64,000 bases of DNA from Nitrososphaerota archaeon (GTDB taxonomy: Archaea > Thermoproteota > EX4484-205 > JAAOZP01): contig JAAOZP010000011.1 of NCBI GenBank assembly GCA_011605725.1, forward strand, positions 116,474 through 180,473, in the 5' to 3' direction. Every line of letters begins with the position of its first letter. Positions within the stretch are counted from its first letter, which is position 1. Of this stretch, positions 31,181 to 39,937 are shown one piece after another. The notes beneath the pieces were generated by a model, which did not search any database, was not told the DNA's origin, and worked only from the letters and a program-made list of their open reading frames with translations. The translations under genes and the position numbers were made by a program.

Positions 31181-32083
31181 TCAAAAAATTTGAAGTATGC
31201 TTAGCAGGATGATGATTGTTCCGAGTGCCAGACAATAGTAGGAGAACTTGTGAAAGCTATGTTTAACAACGTAACTCCTAACCGTTCCTAGGGCAAGGTA
31301 GCCGACGACAGCGGTTACCAGAACCCCTAGGCTAATCATCCAAAACTCTTGCTCGAAACTAATTTCTTGAAGCTTGACGAGGCTTCCGCCTATTATGCTT
31401 GGGATTGATAAGAGCAGGGAAAACCGGTAGGCCTCCTCATACTCAACCCCTCTAAGCAGCCCGGTTGAAACAGTTATTCCTGTTCTGGATATCCCGGGTG
31501 TGATTGCAGCAGCCTGAGAAAACCCTATCAGGAATGCGTCTAAAGCACTTAGTTTCCTAACCGGTTTAGCACGCCTCGTTGAATACAGGATTAAGCCGTT
31601 GAGAAACATCGCAACCCCTGTTGCGAAAAGGCTTTGAAACAAAGACTCGAAGAAGCTTTTAAGAAAAAAGCCTGCTAAGCCGATGGGAATTGTGCCAAGC
31701 GTAATGTATACGAGCATTCTGCCTTCTTCCCCTGAGAAATCGAGCCTAAAAACTGTCCTGACAATGGATTGTAAATCCTTTCTCAGAAACACTGCTACTC
31801 CAATGAGGGTTCCCAGATGAAGCACAATGTCGAAAGCAACGGAGACTTTTATGTTAAACAGCTCCTGCACTATTACTAGGTGCCCAGTGCTTGAAACCGG
31901 AAACCATTCTGTTAAACCTTGAACGAGGCTTAGGCAAACCGTCTCCAAGATTCCCGTTAAGCCTATTCTTACCTGTTTGGAAAAATCAACGGTTAAAACT
32001 GCCTCGGCGAAAATAACTAGCGTTTGAATAAACAGGCAAGTAGTGAGGATAAACGTTAGCGACCGGCGTTTTCTCGTGTCCAC
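31181..32083 (-). CDS. uppP: Undecaprenyl/polyprenyl-diphosphate phosphatase (BacA/UppP) with an N-terminal hydrophobic extension
   Basis: VQGLTEWFPVSSTGH, LHLGT, IGFSQAAAITPGISRTG, FSLLLSIP. GTG 32083 chosen as start to avoid overlapping the upstream gene; the ORF track starts at 32158. Confidence 0.9.
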   Translation of the reverse strand: MDTRKRRSLTFILTTCLFIQTLVIFAEAVLTVDFSKQVRIGLTGILETVCLSLVQGLTEWFPVSSTGHLVIVQELFNIKVSVAFDIVLHLGTLIGVAVFLRKDLQSIVRTVFRLDFSGEEGRMLVYITLGTIPIGLAGFFLKSFFESLFQSLFATGVAMFLNGLILYSTRRAKPVRKLSALDAFLIGFSQAAAITPGISRTGITVSTGLLRGVEYEEAYRFSLLLSIPSIIGGSLVKLQEISFEQEFWMISLGVLVTAVVGYLALGTVRSYVVKHSFHKFSYYCLALGTIIILLSILQIF

Positions 32084-32120
32084 AGCCTTTCGTCGCAACC
32101 ATCTTATAAAAGTTTTACAG

Positions 32121-35100
32121 TTAATAATTTTCAACAAACTTTCTTGCCGATATCTCATACATCTTTCCCTCAGCGTCGAACGTTATAATGTTTTTGTTCA
32201 GCCGTATTGCTGCTATCGCGAGCGCTGAGCTTAACAGGCCGTCGTCTGAATCTAGACATACAGCGTCTATCGTGAGGATTTCTTCAGAAAGCCTTTCGAC
32301 AAGCGTATTCATGTCTCTCGATTCAACCCTCCTAACCTCGATCGTCGGAGGCCAGATGCCTTCAGACCTAACTTTCCTCCTCAATTCCTTCACCTTGCCG
32401 CTTACATCCGATCTCGAATAGATGATTAAAAATTGAGGGCGGTATTTTCTAACAACTGTTGCGGCATAATCCACTGACTCGCCCATTACTACAGCCACGT
32501 TAAATCTTAATGTAGACCATTCAAGGACGAGTTTCCTAACATGAGTTATAACTTCATGCGCATTTGACTCGAGCATAACTGCGTAGAGGGATTTCGTATG
32601 AACGTAAGCCGAGTATTCTTCCCCGTCCTTCTTAACTTCGATCGTGGTTAAGGCTGTAAACGGCCTATTGCCTCCCTTTCCATACCTGAAACTCACCGAA
32701 TACGAGACATTTCCATTCTCATCCAGTTTTTCCTCACGTGAAACATCTGAAATTACCAGTTCTAACGCTGTACTGCTTTGAGGCAATCTTTCGTAAAGAT
32801 AGTTAACAAACGTTTCAACCTTCTCCGAAGGAATCCTCACCGGGATTCGAACCGTCCACACTCCTTCTTTAACTACTTTTTCTTCCATTCTCCATCTTCT
32901 TAAAAGCGAGGGAGTTGCTATTTTCGCAGCCTTTAAGGCAGGAATTGTCGAAGAAACCATGGCTGTCAGAAATGCCATAAGTATTAGGGAGAACATATCT
33001 AGAGGAGTAGTTTTCACGTCAATGGGTATGATCATGTTAGAGACATCAAACACTTTGAATATGATCATGCTCAATATATAGCCAATACCACCACCGATGA
33101 AACCGAATACTCCTGCCTCCACTATGAACAGGCTGGAAATATGAGTGGGGTTTAAGCCTACAGATGAAAAAATGAATATTTCATTCCTCCTTTCGTAAAC
33201 CAGCGTGTAGAACAGCAGCGTAATGTTTAACACAGTAATGATAACTGGGATGAGAACCGATATGCCAAAGACCTCGACAGAACCTCCTCTGAAGTAGTAG
33301 GTTATGCCTTCTGAGCTCGGCATAGTTATGACTGAATAGTTAGCGAGCAAAGCCAATCTTCTTGAAACCTCTCTCGCCTGCGCATTGTCTTCGAATGTGC
33401 AGTAGAGCGCGGAAACATAGCCGCCTAATCTTTGAGCGGTGAAAGCATCCGTTATCAAGAGGTTGTCAGCAGGTACCGGCTGAGCGTTTTCAAAGCCTGG
33501 AAGAATATACATGGGCAGGAAATGGCTACCATCAGGCTCTTTTATCACGTTAACCGGCTCGCCATCAAATATGCCGACTACCTTTAGCCTTACACCTTTG
33601 AAAACAATGGTCATGCCCACGTCCACGTCTGCTCTGTTTGCCAAATACCTGCTTATGAGAACAGCATTACTGTTGTTGAACAGGCTTTCTATTGCATGCT
33701 CCGGGTATGTAGCGCTCTTAATAAGGTCTAGAGATGGATCTCCGGGCGAAACTCCTCTAACCCCATAGATCGGTACCTCGCTAACATAGTCTAGAGCGCC
33801 GTACGCAACGGGGGTTATCACCTTATAGTCTATTCTTGAAACCTCTCTCTGCGCACCTATGAAGCTAAAATCTTCAAGCGCGAGTGGGCCGGAAGGCTTG
33901 ATCACCATCGACACCGGAGGCTTATCGGCTGGCCACGTTTTCGCCACCATAACAGCGTTAGTCGTTAGGGATACCCTTATTGAAGTCAGCGTGGATATTG
34001 CTATGATCATTATTGTAATGGAGACAAGAGTAAGTGTAGTTCTTAGCTTCCTCTTTTTCAAGTTTCCAATAGAGTATGAAATAGCGATCAATAAGGCAGG
34101 TATCAGTGAAACTCCTCGCTCGCTCTTTATTTCAAGAAAGTAGGGAGCTATAAATACAATTAGAAACATGAATATAACAATATAGATTCCTGTCTGAAGC
34201 TCCAATACTGTGATTCTTGAAAGACCTGGGAACACCTGGTAAGCTATAGTCATTAAAACGATGAATGTAATCACCGTCAACATTGCGTATTGATCCTTCC
34301 TCTCTGCAATTATCGAGCCGATGCATAAGGATAGGATCGCAACAATCACAAATACTATAATCTGGTTGGTTCGCGTTTCCCTCAAAATATTTTGAATATT
34401 ACTGATTATTAATATGCTGCTCATCACGGCTTCTTGCTGATACGCCAGTATCTTAATTGGGTCAGTGGCATTTAAAATAGCTAAACGGAATCTTTCAATC
34501 TGCTCCAACCTGTAAAGCTCCAGGCCTACGTAGAGCCCAATATTCCTAGTTTCTTCTACATGTCTTTCAGCGGATTCAACGGTTTTGTTGACGAGAGTTT
34601 GATAGGACTTTACTTGAAGTAAAGCAGGCTGGTCTAAGTAGGTTTTAGCATTTTTGCTTAACCTAATTGGCCGAGTACTATTCCCTATTTCCAATACTGT
34701 TCTTCTCCCACCGACAGTGATTGAAACCAGTATCCATAAGTCTGTTTCAGAAGGAACTATTAGGGTGTTTCCAGTTATGTTTAGCAGACCAAGTAGCGGC
34801 AGATGGCTTGAATCATAATTCAGTATCAGTTGATTAAGCCGCGTCTCATTAAGAATGAGGACACGCATTTCCTGAGTTGGAATCAGCAGGTCGAAAGGGG
34901 AAGGAACAACAGCTAGGACCTTTGCAACCGCTCCTGGACATAGGTTTATTTCCACGTTCTTGGTTTCTCCGACTGATAGTTTTCCTAGGCTTATTATTTG
35001 AGGCACATAAGTATCTTTTTCGTTTAGAGAAGGACCTATGATCCTTATTTCTGAGCCAGAGGGCACTGCTATCGTCGTTTCATTCCAAACTCTGGCGACC

Positions 35101-37496
35101 GTATACGTCTCGTTCATGAACACTAGGAAAAACTGGGGTTCCCTTGGCTTCGGGTTTAACGTTATTTTAAGCATTGATGATGGTTTTACGACGAAGCGTT
35201 TAGAATTTGTGTCGATTCTGGTGCCGTTTGCTAGGAGCAGCTCCGTTGAAACCTCCAGCACATGTTCAGAGTCAACATGGTGCGGCGCCTCGAAGACGCG
35301 TTTTACAGCGAGATAGGCGGGTGATGATGAAGAGGGTATTTCAACGCTCATGTTCTCACTGACTAGAGTTTTATTGCAGGTTATGTCGTTCAACCTCCAG
35401 CTTAGCACTGCGTTGAAAGGCTCCTGAAACACGTCGTTCACAAGCCAGAGCCTAATCCTAACCGTTGAGCCGGGGAGAAAGAATAGGGATGTCAGATCAT
35501 GCCTATAGTCTCCGTCAACCATTATTACGGTATGCACAGGGTTGAAAGCATTCATAACCTCGTAGTAAGATTCTTTCTTAAATCCGTAGGAATCTACGAT
35601 TGAGCCGCTGACGAGCAGGGGGTAGTCTGTAAGTGGAAGAACATTAACCCCTATGGAAATATTGTACCTAAGTATTCTTGCCCTGTCTATAGCATGCCTC
35701 AAAACTAGAGATTGATACTTCTGGCTTAGCTCAATTAAGCTGGAGAGGTTTTTAGCCAAATCTCTCCAGTAGGTGTTTAGGAAAACCGGGTCAAGCCCCT
35801 CTGCCTGAAGAAGCGTAAGAACCTGCTCATAGGGCAGGTTTTGAGCCTCTACCCAGAATGGAGAGTTTAAACTGGGTAAGCCCACTGGACTAACTATGTT
35901 TGGAAAGGACTCCTTGTAATGCAGATAGTCAACCCAGCTTCCCGTTCCCCAACCATAGTTCACGAACCTATCAACATAATCGTATGTCTCAACGTATGAT
36001 AGAACCATGATTCTCTTATTCACCTCCTTAACCAGGACGTTCAGATCACGGTCAAGGTAGAAATTGGTTCCAGAACCATAGTATGGTGACTCCCTGTTCA
36101 GCCACGGCACGAGGGTGTGGGGACAGACTATTGTTATTGAGGGATAGTTGTAAGTTAGCAGTAACAGTTCAACAAGCTGCATCTTCACGAGCCTAGCATA
36201 GTTTTCAGAGTAGTCTAGAGTAGGGTAGGCGCCTATCAGGGGGAAGTCCAGCTGGACGATGAAGCCTTTCAAAGAAGTTAACTCGTAGAACTCTTTCGGC
36301 TCAACATGCGCGAACGACCTTAAGAAATTAACGTTGGCTTCTCTCAGCAGGCTGAGCGTCTCATTCATTTTAAAGCTACCGCTCGTATCAGTAAGCCATT
36401 CGAGCCTAGAGAAATAAGACCCACCCCTTAGAAAAACACTTCTACCGTTTACTTTAATGTAAGGATTCTTCCGGGTAATCGAACCCTCTAAGAAACGTAC
36501 TCCAAATAATGTTTCAACCGACCCGGCGTACTCATCACCATGGTGCAGACTAATGTTGAGAAGGTAAACGTTTGGAACACCAATATCCCATGGGAACCAG
36601 TATGCTGGGTCCCGGAGGGAGATGCTTAAAGTTTCCCACCTTCTTTCCCAGGCAGAAAGCTTTATGCTGAACGACTGTTCTAAGCCGGCTGTGTTGTTGG
36701 GGCCAAAGCCCTTTATTCTTACGGATGCTACAAAGCTATCGTCAACATCCCCCTTGTTCTGAAGTAGAATACGCAGGTTTAAGGAGGCAGGGTTCGAGTA
36801 CTGTGCAATATCAATCAAGACCAGGTTAATAACTGGGTTCAGTGTCCCGACGAGGGTAACGCCTCCAGATATCCCGATGTAACTGTTGCGGAGGTTTGGA
36901 AGAACCTCTGAGAAAGAGTATATGCCCATCGGGTAAACTCTGGATTCATACGTTTCTTGGGTTGGAGCCTCTAAGTATAGGGTCAGTAAGTTGACACCGT
37001 CCCGAACAACAATTTCATCTATGTCGAAGAAGAATTGGGAAAAATAACCCACATGCTCCCCCAAATAGAAGCCGTTCAGCCAGACTTTAGCAGCAACCCA
37101 GACACCTGAGAAGACAAGCCTCAGCCTCTGCCCCCTCATTTCACTAGGCACTGTGAATAATTTTCTTACCCACAGCGAGCTGTTTGACCTGGTTGACTTA
37201 AAAAGGAAGGGTGCTTCAACCCTGCTCCATGAAGAATCATCATAACAAGGATCATAGTAGAGATTAATGTTTCCAGGGTCGAAAGCGTCAACCTTGTAAC
37301 TCCACTTTCCAGTCAATTCATGTTTAGAAAGATAGAAGTAGTCAAATGGCGCGAGGTACGAGGAAACCTTATCCACCAGGTTTTCAGAGGGTTCTATGAA
37401 GAAATACCGTAAACCAGGAAGAATCAGAGCCACTATTAACATCGATACTGAGACTACTGTCAGAAGCGGCTCTGCAATTCTCCTGGCCACCATCAC
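32121..37496 (-). CDS. 1791-aa fusion: GH2-like domain (apparently inactive) + FtsX/MacB-like permease + C-terminal CARF-like domain
   Basis: GH2 motifs LTGKW, KVWLNGFYLGEHVGYFSQF, WFPWDIGVPNVY, FGVR, VNGRSVFLRG, LREANVNFLR, NYPSI. FtsX motifs NLKKRKLRTTLTL, VYERRNEIFIFSSVGLNPTHI, EAGVFG, IPALKAAKIATPS. The last 127 aa follow a CARF-like beta/alpha pattern. Confidence 0.8.
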   Translation of the reverse strand: MMVARRIAEPLLTVVSVSMLIVALILPGLRYFFIEPSENLVDKVSSYLAPFDYFYLSKHELTGKWSYKVDAFDPGNINLYYDPCYDDSSWSRVEAPFLFKSTRSNSSLWVRKLFTVPSEMRGQRLRLVFSGVWVAAKVWLNGFYLGEHVGYFSQFFFDIDEIVVRDGVNLLTLYLEAPTQETYESRVYPMGIYSFSEVLPNLRNSYIGISGGVTLVGTLNPVINLVLIDIAQYSNPASLNLRILLQNKGDVDDSFVASVRIKGFGPNNTAGLEQSFSIKLSAWERRWETLSISLRDPAYWFPWDIGVPNVYLLNISLHHGDEYAGSVETLFGVRFLEGSITRKNPYIKVNGRSVFLRGGSYFSRLEWLTDTSGSFKMNETLSLLREANVNFLRSFAHVEPKEFYELTSLKGFIVQLDFPLIGAYPTLDYSENYARLVKMQLVELLLLTYNYPSITIVCPHTLVPWLNRESPYYGSGTNFYLDRDLNVLVKEVNKRIMVLSYVETYDYVDRFVNYGWGTGSWVDYLHYKESFPNIVSPVGLPSLNSPFWVEAQNLPYEQVLTLLQAEGLDPVFLNTYWRDLAKNLSSLIELSQKYQSLVLRHAIDRARILRYNISIGVNVLPLTDYPLLVSGSIVDSYGFKKESYYEVMNAFNPVHTVIMVDGDYRHDLTSLFFLPGSTVRIRLWLVNDVFQEPFNAVLSWRLNDITCNKTLVSENMSVEIPSSSSPAYLAVKRVFEAPHHVDSEHVLEVSTELLLANGTRIDTNSKRFVVKPSSMLKITLNPKPREPQFFLVFMNETYTVARVWNETTIAVPSGSEIRIIGPSLNEKDTYVPQIISLGKLSVGETKNVEINLCPGAVAKVLAVVPSPFDLLIPTQEMRVLILNETRLNQLILNYDSSHLPLLGLLNITGNTLIVPSETDLWILVSITVGGRRTVLEIGNSTRPIRLSKNAKTYLDQPALLQVKSYQTLVNKTVESAERHVEETRNIGLYVGLELYRLEQIERFRLAILNATDPIKILAYQQEAVMSSILIISNIQNILRETRTNQIIVFVIVAILSLCIGSIIAERKDQYAMLTVITFIVLMTIAYQVFPGLSRITVLELQTGIYIVIFMFLIVFIAPYFLEIKSERGVSLIPALLIAISYSIGNLKKRKLRTTLTLVSITIMIIAISTLTSIRVSLTTNAVMVAKTWPADKPPVSMVIKPSGPLALEDFSFIGAQREVSRIDYKVITPVAYGALDYVSEVPIYGVRGVSPGDPSLDLIKSATYPEHAIESLFNNSNAVLISRYLANRADVDVGMTIVFKGVRLKVVGIFDGEPVNVIKEPDGSHFLPMYILPGFENAQPVPADNLLITDAFTAQRLGGYVSALYCTFEDNAQAREVSRRLALLANYSVITMPSSEGITYYFRGGSVEVFGISVLIPVIITVLNITLLFYTLVYERRNEIFIFSSVGLNPTHISSLFIVEAGVFGFIGGGIGYILSMIIFKVFDVSNMIIPIDVKTTPLDMFSLILMAFLTAMVSSTIPALKAAKIATPSLLRRWRMEEKVVKEGVWTVRIPVRIPSEKVETFVNYLYERLPQSSTALELVISDVSREEKLDENGNVSYSVSFRYGKGGNRPFTALTTIEVKKDGEEYSAYVHTKSLYAVMLESNAHEVITHVRKLVLEWSTLRFNVAVVMGESVDYAATVVRKYRPQFLIIYSRSDVSGKVKELRRKVRSEGIWPPTIEVRRVESRDMNTLVERLSEEILTIDAVCLDSDDGLLSSALAIAAIRLNKNIITFDAEGKMYEISARKFVENY

Positions 37497-37594: not shown

Positions 37595-39937
37595 ATGCCT
37601 GTGAAAACACCTGCCAAGGTTATAGAAATATTTAAAAAACACTACTACATTCTGTCTCTGCTGCTGCTCTTCATATACGCATTACTTTCTGTGAAAACAA
37701 TTTTTCTAGAAGGCATGATCCCGGGCTGGGATAACCCTGTGCACTACGTGAACTCCCATCTCACAGCGCTCTACATGTTTCCCAGGCTGGATATTCTAGG
37801 CTGGGATCCTTTCAACCAGTTCGGCTGGGTTTTCAACCTATACTACAACCCGGGCATGAGCATCTTCGTCTCCTCCATATACCACTCATTTCTAGGCTTC
37901 GTAGACACTCTGTTAGCGTACAAGATCGCTTTCTTCCTAGCGTATTTCCTACCGGCTCCCGCCACATTCATGTTCGTCCACGCTTTAACAGAGGATAAAA
38001 TCGCATCCCTAGTTGCCTCACTGCTTTCAATAACAACCTTCACCGAGGAATCTGCGTGGTTTGACGCTGGTTTAAAGCAAATGTACTACATAGGCATGTG
38101 GCCAGAGAGACTGGGCCTAGTTTTCGTTTTTTTCAGCATAGCCCTCTTAGCCTACTCCTTTAAATCTAAATCCATAGGGAAAACCCTGTTCCTCACAGGA
38201 CTAGGATCTCTGTTCTTCACAATGGCTGTTCTAACCCATGTAATGATGGGGATTTCAGCGGCTTTAATGGCATTATTACTATGGCTATTTGTTTTCCTAA
38301 AAACAGTAGTAGAGTTCCCAAGTTCTACTAGTCAAGGACTCGTATCTCTCTTAAAAACAGAAGGCGTTGTCTTGGTGAAGTTCACATCCATAGGCTTGCT
38401 TTCCTTGGGAATGGCTGCTTTCTGGATGGTCCCGCTTTTTCAAACACTAGAGACGTATCACAGTTTCCCAGCCGTCACGTGGTCCACTGGACCATATATT
38501 TTTGGAGAAACATTTGCCAGTTTACCATGGTACCTCCTGGTTTTTTATTGCCTAGGTGCTTTCGCACCAGTTTACGCAGGAAGTAAAGTCTCCTATTCAT
38601 CCTTAGCTGCATCCGCAGTCATCCTCATTCTGCAGTTCCTGAACCTAGTTAACCTGTACGATGGCAACATTGGACTGAGGCTTATTTTCGCGTTCGCGGT
38701 GTCACTGGTTTTGCTGGTTTCCTCCAAGGACCTCTACGTGCCGTTCCTGCTTGCATCCATATCTATCCTTGGTTTTCTGGCAACAGGACCCGATACATAC
38801 CTTGTGTGCTTCGGCCCGTTTAGACTCGACCTGCTTAGTCTAATACCGTTCGCAAGAAGCTTCGGCTACTCCAAGTTTAATGCTCCAGTCAGGATTCTAA
38901 TACTCAGCTTAGCAGCCCTAGGTTTCTCGAAGATTTTAAGCAAGCTCTACACGCTCTCCAAAACAACAAGATTTCCAGCAGTTTTCTCGATAATAGCCGG
39001 ATTGCTAGCGTTCTTGATCCTCAATTCTTCGCTTAGTGCCCAATTACAGAATACTGACCTCGCCTACCCTTTTTCCAAGGAGAAGGTTTTCAAACTAACC
39101 TCAGACTACCCGGGCTTCAAAAAAGTTGACGAGCTTACAGGCTGGGTTGAGAACAATGTTCCCGGAGACACTTACATACTGTTTCAGGATACTTTGGATT
39201 TCGGCGGCAGCGAGGATTTTCAGACATCCCACTATGTCTATATTGCTTCAATAAGGCTAAAAAGGCCTATTATTGGCGGTTGTTTTGGGACTCGCTATAT
39301 AACTAATCCTTATGCCCTTACCGAGGGAGGGTATCTTCTAAGCTTCCCCATTGAAAAGCTGATTAAGAACGATCTGATTAAGCGACTGATGGATGAGCTT
39401 GGAATCGGCTACATCGCTATCCATGATTCGAGACTAATAAATTTCTTAAACTCCTCCACCGATTTTTGCCTCGAGTATTACAATGGCTTGTACGCAGTTT
39501 TTCGGAAAACTAATTCCTCAAAGATTGTTTTCATCCAGGGAGAGGGGAGAGTCGAATCAGTAGACTTCACCATAAACAAGATTGAAGCCACAGTATCCGG
39601 CGTGTCTGGAAATGCTTCATACCTGATAGTTAGACAGGTTAACTTTCCAGGCTTCACCGCCGAAGCAGACGGGGAAATTATTTCTATAGACACATATTAT
39701 CCTAAGCTGCCAAACGTAATAACGGGTTGGCAGGGAATCCAGCCGGTATTCAACTGGAGAATACCGTTCATCAAGGTGAAAATACCAGCCGGGTCTAACA
39801 GGGTAACATTAAGGTTCAGTATTCATACCGTGGGAAGCGACATATCAAAAATAGCCTGGACAGTGTTCCTCTGTCTTCTGATCTCCGGCATAGTCCTGCC
39901 GACAGTAGGGAAGTTGCGCAAAAAATGGCGAAAGTAA
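37595..39937 (+). CDS. Polytopic membrane protein, GT-C-like (PTPS-related/YfhO-like) glycosyltransferase
   Basis: GWDNPVH after TM1, GWDP...YYNPG, more than 10 hydrophobic helices, extracellular domain with a YfhO-like tail (VNFPGFTAEADG), final TM helix. Confidence 0.7.
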   Translation: MPVKTPAKVIEIFKKHYYILSLLLLFIYALLSVKTIFLEGMIPGWDNPVHYVNSHLTALYMFPRLDILGWDPFNQFGWVFNLYYNPGMSIFVSSIYHSFLGFVDTLLAYKIAFFLAYFLPAPATFMFVHALTEDKIASLVASLLSITTFTEESAWFDAGLKQMYYIGMWPERLGLVFVFFSIALLAYSFKSKSIGKTLFLTGLGSLFFTMAVLTHVMMGISAALMALLLWLFVFLKTVVEFPSSTSQGLVSLLKTEGVVLVKFTSIGLLSLGMAAFWMVPLFQTLETYHSFPAVTWSTGPYIFGETFASLPWYLLVFYCLGAFAPVYAGSKVSYSSLAASAVILILQFLNLVNLYDGNIGLRLIFAFAVSLVLLVSSKDLYVPFLLASISILGFLATGPDTYLVCFGPFRLDLLSLIPFARSFGYSKFNAPVRILILSLAALGFSKILSKLYTLSKTTRFPAVFSIIAGLLAFLILNSSLSAQLQNTDLAYPFSKEKVFKLTSDYPGFKKVDELTGWVENNVPGDTYILFQDTLDFGGSEDFQTSHYVYIASIRLKRPIIGGCFGTRYITNPYALTEGGYLLSFPIEKLIKNDLIKRLMDELGIGYIAIHDSRLINFLNSSTDFCLEYYNGLYAVFRKTNSSKIVFIQGEGRVESVDFTINKIEATVSGVSGNASYLIVRQVNFPGFTAEADGEIISIDTYYPKLPNVITGWQGIQPVFNWRIPFIKVKIPAGSNRVTLRFSIHTVGSDISKIAWTVFLCLLISGIVLPTVGKLRKKWRK

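Follow-up and report, generated by a model that had tools for sequence, protein, structure and literature searches.

We analyzed a 64,000-nucleotide stretch of contig JAAOZP010000011.1 (the window, to which all coordinates refer) from the genome of a Nitrososphaerota archaeon (assembly GCA_011605725.1), which encodes on its minus strand a fusion protein of 1791 aa (positions 32121 to 37496), recognized both as an open reading frame (ORF) and by a match to a PADLOC profile. The protein is composed, in order, of a membrane anchor, a GH2-like ectodomain, three transmembrane helices, a MacB/FtsX permease, a segment that we call domain X, and a CARF domain. The ectodomain (36129 to 37187, minus strand) includes sugar-binding and Ig-like parts and the start of a TIM barrel (Pfam PF02837, PF22666, and PF00703); GH2 structures in the PDB match it at 5e-15, and the NCBIfam GH2 models match it at 1e-18, far under their cut-offs. 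The permease consists of a MacB-like extracytoplasmic core domain (residues 1154 to 1381, 33354 to 34037, minus strand; Pfam PF12704, 5.9e-6, barely above the cut-off) and an FtsX-type transmembrane module (TM2 to TM4, residues 1414 to 1526, 32919 to 33257, minus strand; Pfam PF02687, 1.2e-15). The last FtsX helix is followed by domain X, a cytoplasmic alpha+beta domain with the order bb-a-bbbb-a (residues 1540 to 1657, 32526 to 32879, minus strand) that leads into the CARF domain, and the last 134 residues (1658 to 1791, 32124 to 32525, minus strand) form the CARF-fold domain, which belongs to clade CARF_m8. The C-terminal peptide segments quoted in an earlier note on this DNA are the exact end of this ORF.

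Immediately downstream of the fusion, on the same strand, is a gene for the polyprenyl-diphosphate phosphatase BacA/UppP (31181 to 32158; Pfam PF02673, 1e-65), the longest ORF of which overlaps the 3' end of the fusion ORF. On the other side, a 780-aa polytopic membrane protein is transcribed divergently (37595 to 39937, plus strand) and is a conserved neighbor of the fusion.

The fusion family is already known, being listed in a library of defense-gene profiles as CARF clade m8, so that the assignment of the fold adds nothing in itself. Over its full length, the protein aligns with PADLOC profile PDLC01990, named CARF_m8--CARF_Beta-galactosidase_LolE_TM (PADLOC-DB v2), with an E value of 0 and 1200.6 bits, residues 11 to 1788 aligning to positions 9 to 1787 of 1791; the two architectures are the same from end to end, with no structural difference, and what the catalog supplies is a name. 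Shorter relatives of approximately 1050 to 1150 aa match PDLC01991 (CARF_m8--CARF_LolE_TM), and the clade is widespread in the Thermoproteota. The clade names of PADLOC are reportedly taken from the 2020 CARF census of Makarova et al. (NAR 48:8828), whose scheme, as described in PMC11754643, comprises 25 clades with annotated fusions. The papers searched contained neither a ligand nor a structure, phenotype, or analysis of gene context for CARF_m8, and nothing relevant on CARF combined with FtsX, LolE, or a permease. To the catalog entry, the present analysis adds a negative association of the family with Cas10, an acidic motif at the dyad, the optional nature of the domain, and a conserved GT-C-like partner.

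The C-terminal segment is a true member of the CARF superfamily, placed in the cytoplasm after the fourth FtsX helix. The domain starts at L1658 (position 32525) and its first strand at F1665 (first base 32504), and the structural model of residues 1658 to 1791 (pLDDT 90.9, pTM 0.83) contains strand 9-13, helix 19-28, strand 32-37, helix 42-54, strand 61-66, helix 72-82, strand 88-90, helix 96-108, and strands 112-116 and 122-126, followed by a short helix. This is the order of strands and helices that the earlier note had proposed. Measured against the definition of the CARF superfamily given by Makarova et al. 2014 (PMC4012209), the model has the Rossmann-like core of six strands, the last two of which pair as a beta-hairpin, as well as a polar residue ending strand 1 (G15-E16-S17), where most aligned sequences carry Ser (the DSDDG group has the consensus "G.S", and the column over the whole alignment reads "s"). 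The best 22 matches listed by Foldseek are all CARF domains (Csa3 6wxq, E value of 2.7e-6; 2wte, TMq of 0.74), and the closest folds in the structure comparison are the cA4-binding CARFs Csa3, Can2, and Cam1.

Sequence searches point the same way. Pfam and NCBIfam scans of the C-terminal tail gave no match, and Pfam scans of single family members gave weak matches to CARF families, namely, HFX_2341_N (1.5e-4), which is Csa3-like (PMC11434293), and CARF_Card1 (5.5e-4). The natural CARF matches of the A3 profile in the PDB are marginal (E values of 0.002 to 0.006) and include the ring nucleases Sis0455 (0.0017) and SSO2081 (0.005); the highest-ranking hits of that search, to de novo designed Rossmann proteins and to a fragment of a secretin, were discarded as compositional matches. 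The CARF_m8 profiles PDLC01990 and PDLC01991 match the domain alone at 1.2e-27 and 2.6e-29.

The domain could in principle be a generic Rossmannoid (USP, receiver, SLOG, or one half of a GT-B fold) that resembles CARF by its strand order alone, but this is very improbable: all 20 top matches in the structure comparison are CARF domains, and the best of them scores six Z units above the first match outside the superfamily; the model contains the b5-b6 hairpin; and CARF-specific profiles match at 1e-29, with a distant member of the family (P0070, motif CITGGTE) forming a bridge to the canonical CARF1/3/4 and Csx1 profiles, which it matches at 1e-7 to 1e-5. The outcomes that would have spoken against the earlier claim of a CARF-like domain on a permease, i.e., a non-CARF Rossmannoid as the best match or an unconfident fold, did not occur.

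The domain departs from canonical CARFs in the loop after strand 4. In the profile alignment, C90-L91-D92-S93-D94-D95-G96 falls on D-I-T-G-G-R-K of Sis0455, and the D-S-D-D-G loop (32238 to 32252, minus strand), located by translation and this alignment, lies in a stretch (domain residues 90 to 100) with no K or R, at the place where canonical CARFs have [DN]x[ST]xxx[RK]; the earlier note had called the motif degenerate from the peptide LDSDDGLL. A second subgroup retains [ST]-G ([ST]G[GED]) and likewise has no K/R. The positions that line the canonical pocket, namely, the serine that follows strand 1 and the strand-4 loop, are nonetheless the most conserved residues in the two divergent subgroups, and the longest conserved run of the domain, D.vC.dSDDGlLSsal..AA....K, includes the strand-4 loop. 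Across orthologues, identity in the CARF domain tracks that in the remainder of the protein. Families without K/R, such as RtcR and RV2818, are counted as divergent CARFs, and it has been proposed that their ligands are not the usual nucleotide (PMC4012209); our protein is likened to them by description rather than by sequence, and their output domains (sigma-54 AAA+ in the case of RtcR) differ from its own.

No cas genes of the kinds tested, and no tandem arrays, occur in the window, and no cas genes lie beside the fusion at the nine copies whose neighboring genes were scanned against Pfam. The source genome, as opposed to the window, does carry them: Cas1 is on contig C11, and contig C15, a different contig from that of the fusion, holds a Cas10-like gene with GGDD, all of the RAMP genes (five in number), and a Csx1 CARF-HEPN gene, which overturns the implication of the earlier note that the genome is devoid of type III signaling. 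The Cas10-like gene was found with the Csm1 profile and the palm2 Pfam model, whereas the Csm1_B and Cmr2 profiles had no match in the genome. As for other cyclases, a SMODS-type nucleotidyltransferase is present on contig C19, and a search for DAC (c-di-AMP synthase) in this genome, which is 93% complete, was negative. Cas10 palm2 was detected in 8 of 37 genomes with a CARF-bearing tail, compared to 117 of 364 others, and of the 16 genomes of the source genus, 13 carry the tail and 2 carry Cas10, counts that are weakened by the incompleteness of metagenome-assembled genomes, by the poor assembly of CRISPR loci, and by the fact that related genomes are not independent samples. The fusion has neither the proximity to cas genes nor the co-occurrence with Cas10 that would mark an ancillary effector of type III CRISPR-Cas, and it has no genomic link to Cas10; the view that it stands outside any CRISPR context holds at the inspected copies.

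CARF domains are viewed almost exclusively as receptors for cyclic oligoadenylate (cOA) in type III CRISPR defense. The fusion might be read as a membrane effector acting in trans, in the manner of Cam1, with a Cas10 encoded elsewhere making cOA that engages the CARF dimer and elicits a membrane or envelope response. The proximity of the fold to cA4-binding CARFs, the presence of the family in a defense-profile library, and the Cas10-like, RAMP, Csx1, and nucleotidyltransferase genes of the source genome are consistent with such a role. Against it, the signature basic residue is replaced by an acidic cluster (D92, D94, and D95) that would face the phosphates, Cas10 in carriers is not above background, and the conserved neighbors are glycan and lipid-carrier genes in place of cas genes. 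The acidic motif and the missing co-occurrence argue, indirectly, against cOA as the ligand, and we regard an effector of this kind as improbable, although the GGDD-bearing Cas10-like gene and Csx1 leave some room for cOA sensing in this organism. Known proteins with the nearest folds also differ in design. Csa3/Csa3a (Sso1445; PDB accession numbers 2wte, 6wxq, and 6w11), which is 14 to 17% identical to our domain, is a CARF-wHTH regulator that binds cA4 and combines the basic signature with a DNA-binding output domain, whereas the fusion has DSDDG and carries its permease and ectodomain upstream of the CARF domain, not after it. In Cam1 (PDB accession numbers 8t64 to 8t66), a membrane effector of type III CRISPR that is gated by cA4, the CARF domain is likewise joined to transmembrane helices, and the gene lies next to type III cas genes; Cam1 is small and its helices are N-terminal, unlike the 1791-aa FtsX/MacB fusion, which has a C-terminal CARF, no cas neighbors, and no co-occurrence with Cas10.

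MacB/FtsX permeases work as homodimers, and for this reason two tails of the fusion would pair beneath the membrane in the manner of CARF dimers. The predicted CARF homodimer has an ipSAE of 0.85, compared to 0.28 for the best control, and passes a mark that was reached by 20 of 30 proteins whose solved structures pair two copies of one chain and by 1 of 23 solved as single chains, although the pass may reflect resemblance to solved CARF dimers. The individual predictions share at least 92% of their contacts, with a partner pLDDT of at least 86, and the predicted interface is made of helix 4, the hairpin of strands b5 and b6, and the loop that follows strand 4. At the predicted dyad, where the superfamily definition places the ligand site of a CARF homodimer, the motif loops touch, and the pairs G96-G96' and D94-D94' have the smallest expected errors.

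The CARF domain is absent from close orthologues and from many paralogues, which stop after domain X: P0022, which is 62% identical, ends 13 residues past the domain X boundary, and most proteins of the phylum with FtsX and domain X have no CARF domain. The existence of these proteins means that the CARF domain is dispensable in nature. Together with the direct contact between the motif loops of the two chains and the loss of the signature K/R, it also fits a degenerate CARF that binds no ligand and is kept purely as a cytoplasmic dimerization or scaffold domain joining two permease protomers. This possibility strikes us as rather unlikely, in that the pocket positions are the most conserved, whereas a plain interface would be expected to allow more hydrophobic substitution, and three conserved acidic residues per chain at the dyad would be costly unless they bind, for example, a cation or amine. 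The earlier proposal, a ligand other than cOA or a role in dimerization, is compatible with the K/R-less motif, the missing Cas10 co-occurrence, and the predicted homodimer, which together fall short of proving it.

With respect to its transport machinery, the protein has the FtsX four-helix permease and extracytoplasmic core domain of a type VII ABC system, but a cognate ABC ATPase is neither fused nor adjacent: PF00005 has no match in the window or beside the relatives inspected. The source genome has 45 ABC ATPase matches, the nearest of them on the same contig approximately 100 kb from the fusion, and the permease might yet work with an ATPase from a distant gene. In the vicinity of the fusion are instead BacA/UppP, UbiA, and sugar enzymes. 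Homologues of the 780-aa protein (35 to 40% identity) lie divergently beside the fusion in genomes G095, G261, G363, and G339; this neighbor has about 12 hydrophobic segments, then a soluble domain, and then a C-terminal anchor, and it has no Pfam or PDB sequence match. A PMT-family GT-C gene adjoins a 1072-aa variant of the fusion family, and we call the 780-aa neighbor GT-C-like on the basis of its topology and of this gene beside a relative. Taken together, these neighbors (the conserved GT-C-like membrane protein, UppP, UbiA, and the sugar enzymes) suggest that the fusion functions in envelope or lipid-linked glycan processing, not in antiviral defense.

On balance, we lean toward the CARF domain being the C-terminal cytoplasmic regulatory module of the cataloged CARF_m8 permease, responding to something other than cOA or clamping the dimer and serving an envelope glycan role, with a mechanism that we infer from the architecture. 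The acidic loops of a CARF-type dimer would meet at the two-fold axis beneath the membrane, and the dimer would act as a regulatory switch that binds a cytoplasmic ligand other than cyclic oligoadenylate, or it may merely clamp the two protomers; the FtsX stalk helices would then relay the state of the dimer to the GH2-like ectodomain and the MacB core outside the cytoplasm. In FtsEX, LolCDE, and MacB, the type VII ABC mechanotransmission systems, it is the ABC ATPase that does the job here proposed for the CARF dimer. The FtsX four-helix module and MacB-like core are common to those systems and to the fusion, but they have an ABC ATPase where the fusion presents domain X and CARF on its cytoplasmic face, with no ATPase fused or nearby. 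FtsEX controls EnvC, PcsB, RipC, and CwlO; in the fusion, unlike in FtsEX-type systems, a hydrolase-like domain is fused in cis, and this extracytoplasmic domain would be the controlled part.

A bolder version, which we put forward as doubtful, is that the CARF dimer and domain X have replaced the ABC ATPase as the driver or gate of the MacB/FtsX module, and that a nonnucleotide ligand (a cation, polyamine, or amino-sugar metabolite) at the acidic DSDDG dyad toggles the fused, probably noncatalytic GH2-like ectodomain, coupling the metabolic state of the cytoplasm to lipid-linked glycan processing with the GT-C-like neighbor. If true, this would be a CARF sensor recruited for envelope homeostasis, wholly outside antiviral defense. 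Because the clade is conserved independently of Cas10, has lost the basic residue of the signature, and forms part of a motorless FtsX/MacB permease near glycan-pathway genes, it offers a concrete, testable case of a CARF sensor outside CRISPR, and it is relevant to the question of how type VII ABC-like permeases could run without an ATPase.

The C-terminal stretch that the earlier note described as a CARF-fold-like domain (32121-32504) closes a 1,791-codon open reading frame on the minus strand (32121-37496), with the CARF region at the 3' end. Pfam assigns residues 104-334 to GH2 sugar-binding and Ig-like modules, residues 1154-1381 to a MacB-like extracytoplasmic core domain, and residues 1414-1526 to an FtsX permease module. 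With the GH2 models of NCBIfam, which score far under their cut-offs, the glycosidase-like part reaches about residue 456, and the last 257 residues have no match in either database. A hydropathy scan finds an anchor at the N terminus, a group of three helices near residues 1046-1121, an amphipathic "elbow" before the first FtsX transmembrane helix, and the four FtsX helices, a pattern that would place the GH2-like ectodomain and the MacB core outside the cell and the C-terminal tail, composed of a small alpha+beta domain (domain X, residues 1540-1657) and the CARF domain (1658-1791), in the cytoplasm. In canonical GH2 enzymes, the acid/base glutamate sits in an N-x-P-S-I-x-x-W-S-x-x-N-E motif. 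Around residues 412-456 (36129-36260, minus strand), where the PDB alignments end, the fusion reads NYPSITIVCPHTL; the ectodomain is probably noncatalytic, consistent with the sequence at the acid/base motif position.

All peptide segments quoted in the earlier note occur in the translation, and the codon for F1665, where strand 1 starts, opens at base 32504. AlphaFold2 models built with 54 homologous tails as input are confident for both the whole tail (pLDDT of 89.9) and residues 1658-1791 alone (pLDDT of 90.9, pTM of 0.83), and the latter reproduces exactly the proposed order b1-a1-b2-a2-b3-a3-b4-a4-b5-b6, in which the last two strands make a hairpin, and adds a short terminal helix. The best 22 PDB matches listed by Foldseek are exclusively CARF domains, among them Csa3 with cA4 (E value of 2.7e-6), apo Csa3 (TMq of 0.74), Can2 (0.72), Cam1, Csm6, Card1, and Cad1, so it is very improbable that the domain is a non-CARF Rossmannoid. 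At the profile level, the domain matches the CARF ring nucleases Sis0455 (E value of 0.0017) and SSO2081 (0.005) in an alignment spanning strand 4 and helix 4, and single family members weakly match Pfam CARF_Card1 and HFX_2341_N, HFX_2341 being a Csa3a-like regulator (PMC11434293). A distant member whose motif reads CITGGTE scores between 1e-7 and 1e-5 against the canonical profiles CARF1, CARF3, CARF4, and Csx1, a sequence link between the clade and mainstream CARFs. The original observation is confirmed, and its interpretation as a CARF fold is supported.

By the definition of Makarova et al. 2014 (PMC4012209), a CARF domain has six core strands, the last two of them paired as a b5-b6 hairpin; strand 1 ends in S/T, and strand 4 is followed by the signature [DN]x[ST]xxx[RK]. 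The core, the hairpin, and the strand-1 feature (G15-E16-S17, counted from residue 1658) are present, but the signature is absent: the canonical site is conserved with an acidic motif, C90-L91-D92-S93-D94-D95-G96, which aligns on D-I-T-G-G-R-K of Sis0455. In the DSDDG subgroup (27 nonredundant sequences), no conserved stretch of the domain is longer than D.vC.dSDDGlLSsal..AA....K, and a second subgroup of 21 sequences (VC[IV][ST]G[GED]) keeps the S/T and glycine; the Lys/Arg is missing from both, in keeping with the description of the motif (LDSDDGLL) as degenerate. CARF families without the basic residue, such as RtcR and RV2818, may bind other ligands (PMC4012209).

Searched against PADLOC-DB, the tail matches PDLC01991, "CARF_m8--CARF_LolE_TM" (5.9e-58), and PDLC01990, "CARF_m8--CARF_Beta-galactosidase_LolE_TM" (1.2e-55), and the whole protein matches the latter at an E value of 0, residues 11-1788 covering profile positions 9-1787 of 1,791. 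On sequence grounds, this match is the decisive result for the identity of the family. The "clade--architecture" form of these profile names is the scheme of the 2020 CARF census of Makarova et al., which, by the account in PMC11754643, assigned 6,665 CARF proteins to 25 clades and annotated the fusions. Given the full-length match and the census-style name, the architecture has already been catalogued; the family is known as CARF_m8, yet uncharacterized.

Within the phylum, the CARF domain is an optional add-on. A tail profile matched 85 of 401 genomes, and in 37 the match includes the CARF part, in open reading frames of about 1,050-1,850 aa; many other matches cover only positions 5-135, that is, domain X alone, at the end of FtsX proteins of 950-1,080 aa, and an orthologue that is 62% identical (P0022, 1,667 aa) ends 13 residues past the domain X boundary. 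Where present, the CARF domain is conserved like the rest of the protein; at the distance of the orthologue P0020, for example, identity is 47% in CARF, 52% in the GH2 region, and 64% in the FtsX helices. The genome of the window also encodes a paralogue on contig C1 (54297-57392; L021:6297-9392, plus strand; match at C1:57005), a 1,031- to 1,070-aa FtsX permease that ends in domain X and lacks CARF; the genes flanking it are those for alpha-L-fucosidase, polysaccharide deacetylase, FGGY sugar kinase, and GHL10. Permeases with domain X but no CARF domain are widespread in the phylum, likewise without an adjacent ATPase gene.

The earlier note saw no CRISPR context, and this holds locally: no tandem arrays were found in the window, nor cas genes beside any copy whose neighbors were scanned. 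Elsewhere in this 93% complete genome, Cas1 lies on contig C11, and contig C15 carries a type III-like CRISPR-Cas cassette (L004:3256-14558, minus strand) with five RAMP genes, two unassigned open reading frames, a Csx1 CARF-HEPN gene, and an 883-aa Cas10-like gene (GGDD motif; palm2 at 8e-11; weak Csm1 match). As to cyclases other than Cas10, which the note had also raised, a search for DAC gave no match in the genome, and a SMODS (CD-NTase-like) nucleotidyltransferase match exceeds its cut-off (E value of 7.1e-10) in a 469-aa open frame on contig C19 (149113-149502, plus strand), a possible second source of cyclic nucleotide signals. With these elements, the organism may well produce cyclic oligoadenylate (cOA). 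Among the genomes searched, the CARF-bearing tail is independent of Cas10 and has no positive association with it: palm2 was found in 8 of 37 genomes with the tail versus 117 of 364 others, and of the 16 genomes of the genus itself, 13 have the tail and 2 have a Cas10 match, counts from related, partly incomplete genomes that do not amount to a statistical test. Taking both sides together, we consider it quite unlikely that the domain senses cOA in trans.

Two copies of the CARF domain are predicted to pair with an ipSAE of 0.85 (best control, 0.28), a mark passed by 20 of 30 proteins solved as same-chain pairs and 1 of 23 solved as single chains; contact agreement between runs is at least 92% and partner pLDDT at least 86. 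In this prediction, the strand-4 loop (91-97) and helix 4 form the interface together with the b5-b6 hairpin and the ends of strands 1 and 3, and contact is tightest at G96-G96' and D94-D94'. This pairing is of the CARF type and may echo CARF dimers already solved, indicating likeness, not binding. MacB/FtsX permeases are homodimers, a state that the predicted CARF dimer fits. We regard a purely structural dimerizer as a somewhat unlikely account of the domain.

The neighborhood is one of glycan and lipid-carrier genes. Downstream, BacA/UppP (31181-32158, minus strand) is tightly packed with the fusion whichever start holds: its longest open reading frame, on the same strand, shares 38 bases with the 3' end of the fusion, stop codon included, although the Pfam match begins at residue 74 and the true start may be further downstream. 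On the upstream side, a divergent gene (37595-39937, plus strand) encodes a polytopic membrane protein of 780 aa, in which some 12 hydrophobic segments precede a soluble domain of about 270 aa and a C-terminal anchor; the protein has no sequence match in Pfam or PDB and resembles GT-C glycosyltransferases in topology, and its gene is followed by one for a UbiA prenyltransferase. The 780-aa gene holds the same divergent position next to the fusion in four genomes, which span three GTDB families and whose fusions are only 30-36% identical, and in another genome a PMT-family (GT-C) gene occupies it (L022:11246-12790) beside a 1,072-aa CARF_m8 variant. Other neighbors of relatives and of the paralogue include fucosidase, polysaccharide deacetylase, sugar kinase, GHL10, and GFO/IDH/MocA genes. 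None of the genome's 45 ABC ATPase matches falls in the window, the nearest on the same contig being about 100 kb away.

We lean slightly toward a reading in which two tails would pair beneath the membrane as a clamp, with a ligand other than cOA. Such a clamp could be ligand controlled or constitutive, and the FtsX helices would relay its state to the MacB core and GH2-like ectodomain, much as in the mechanotransmission of FtsEX, LolCDE, and MacB, which is driven by an ATPase, whereas no ATPase gene is nearby here.
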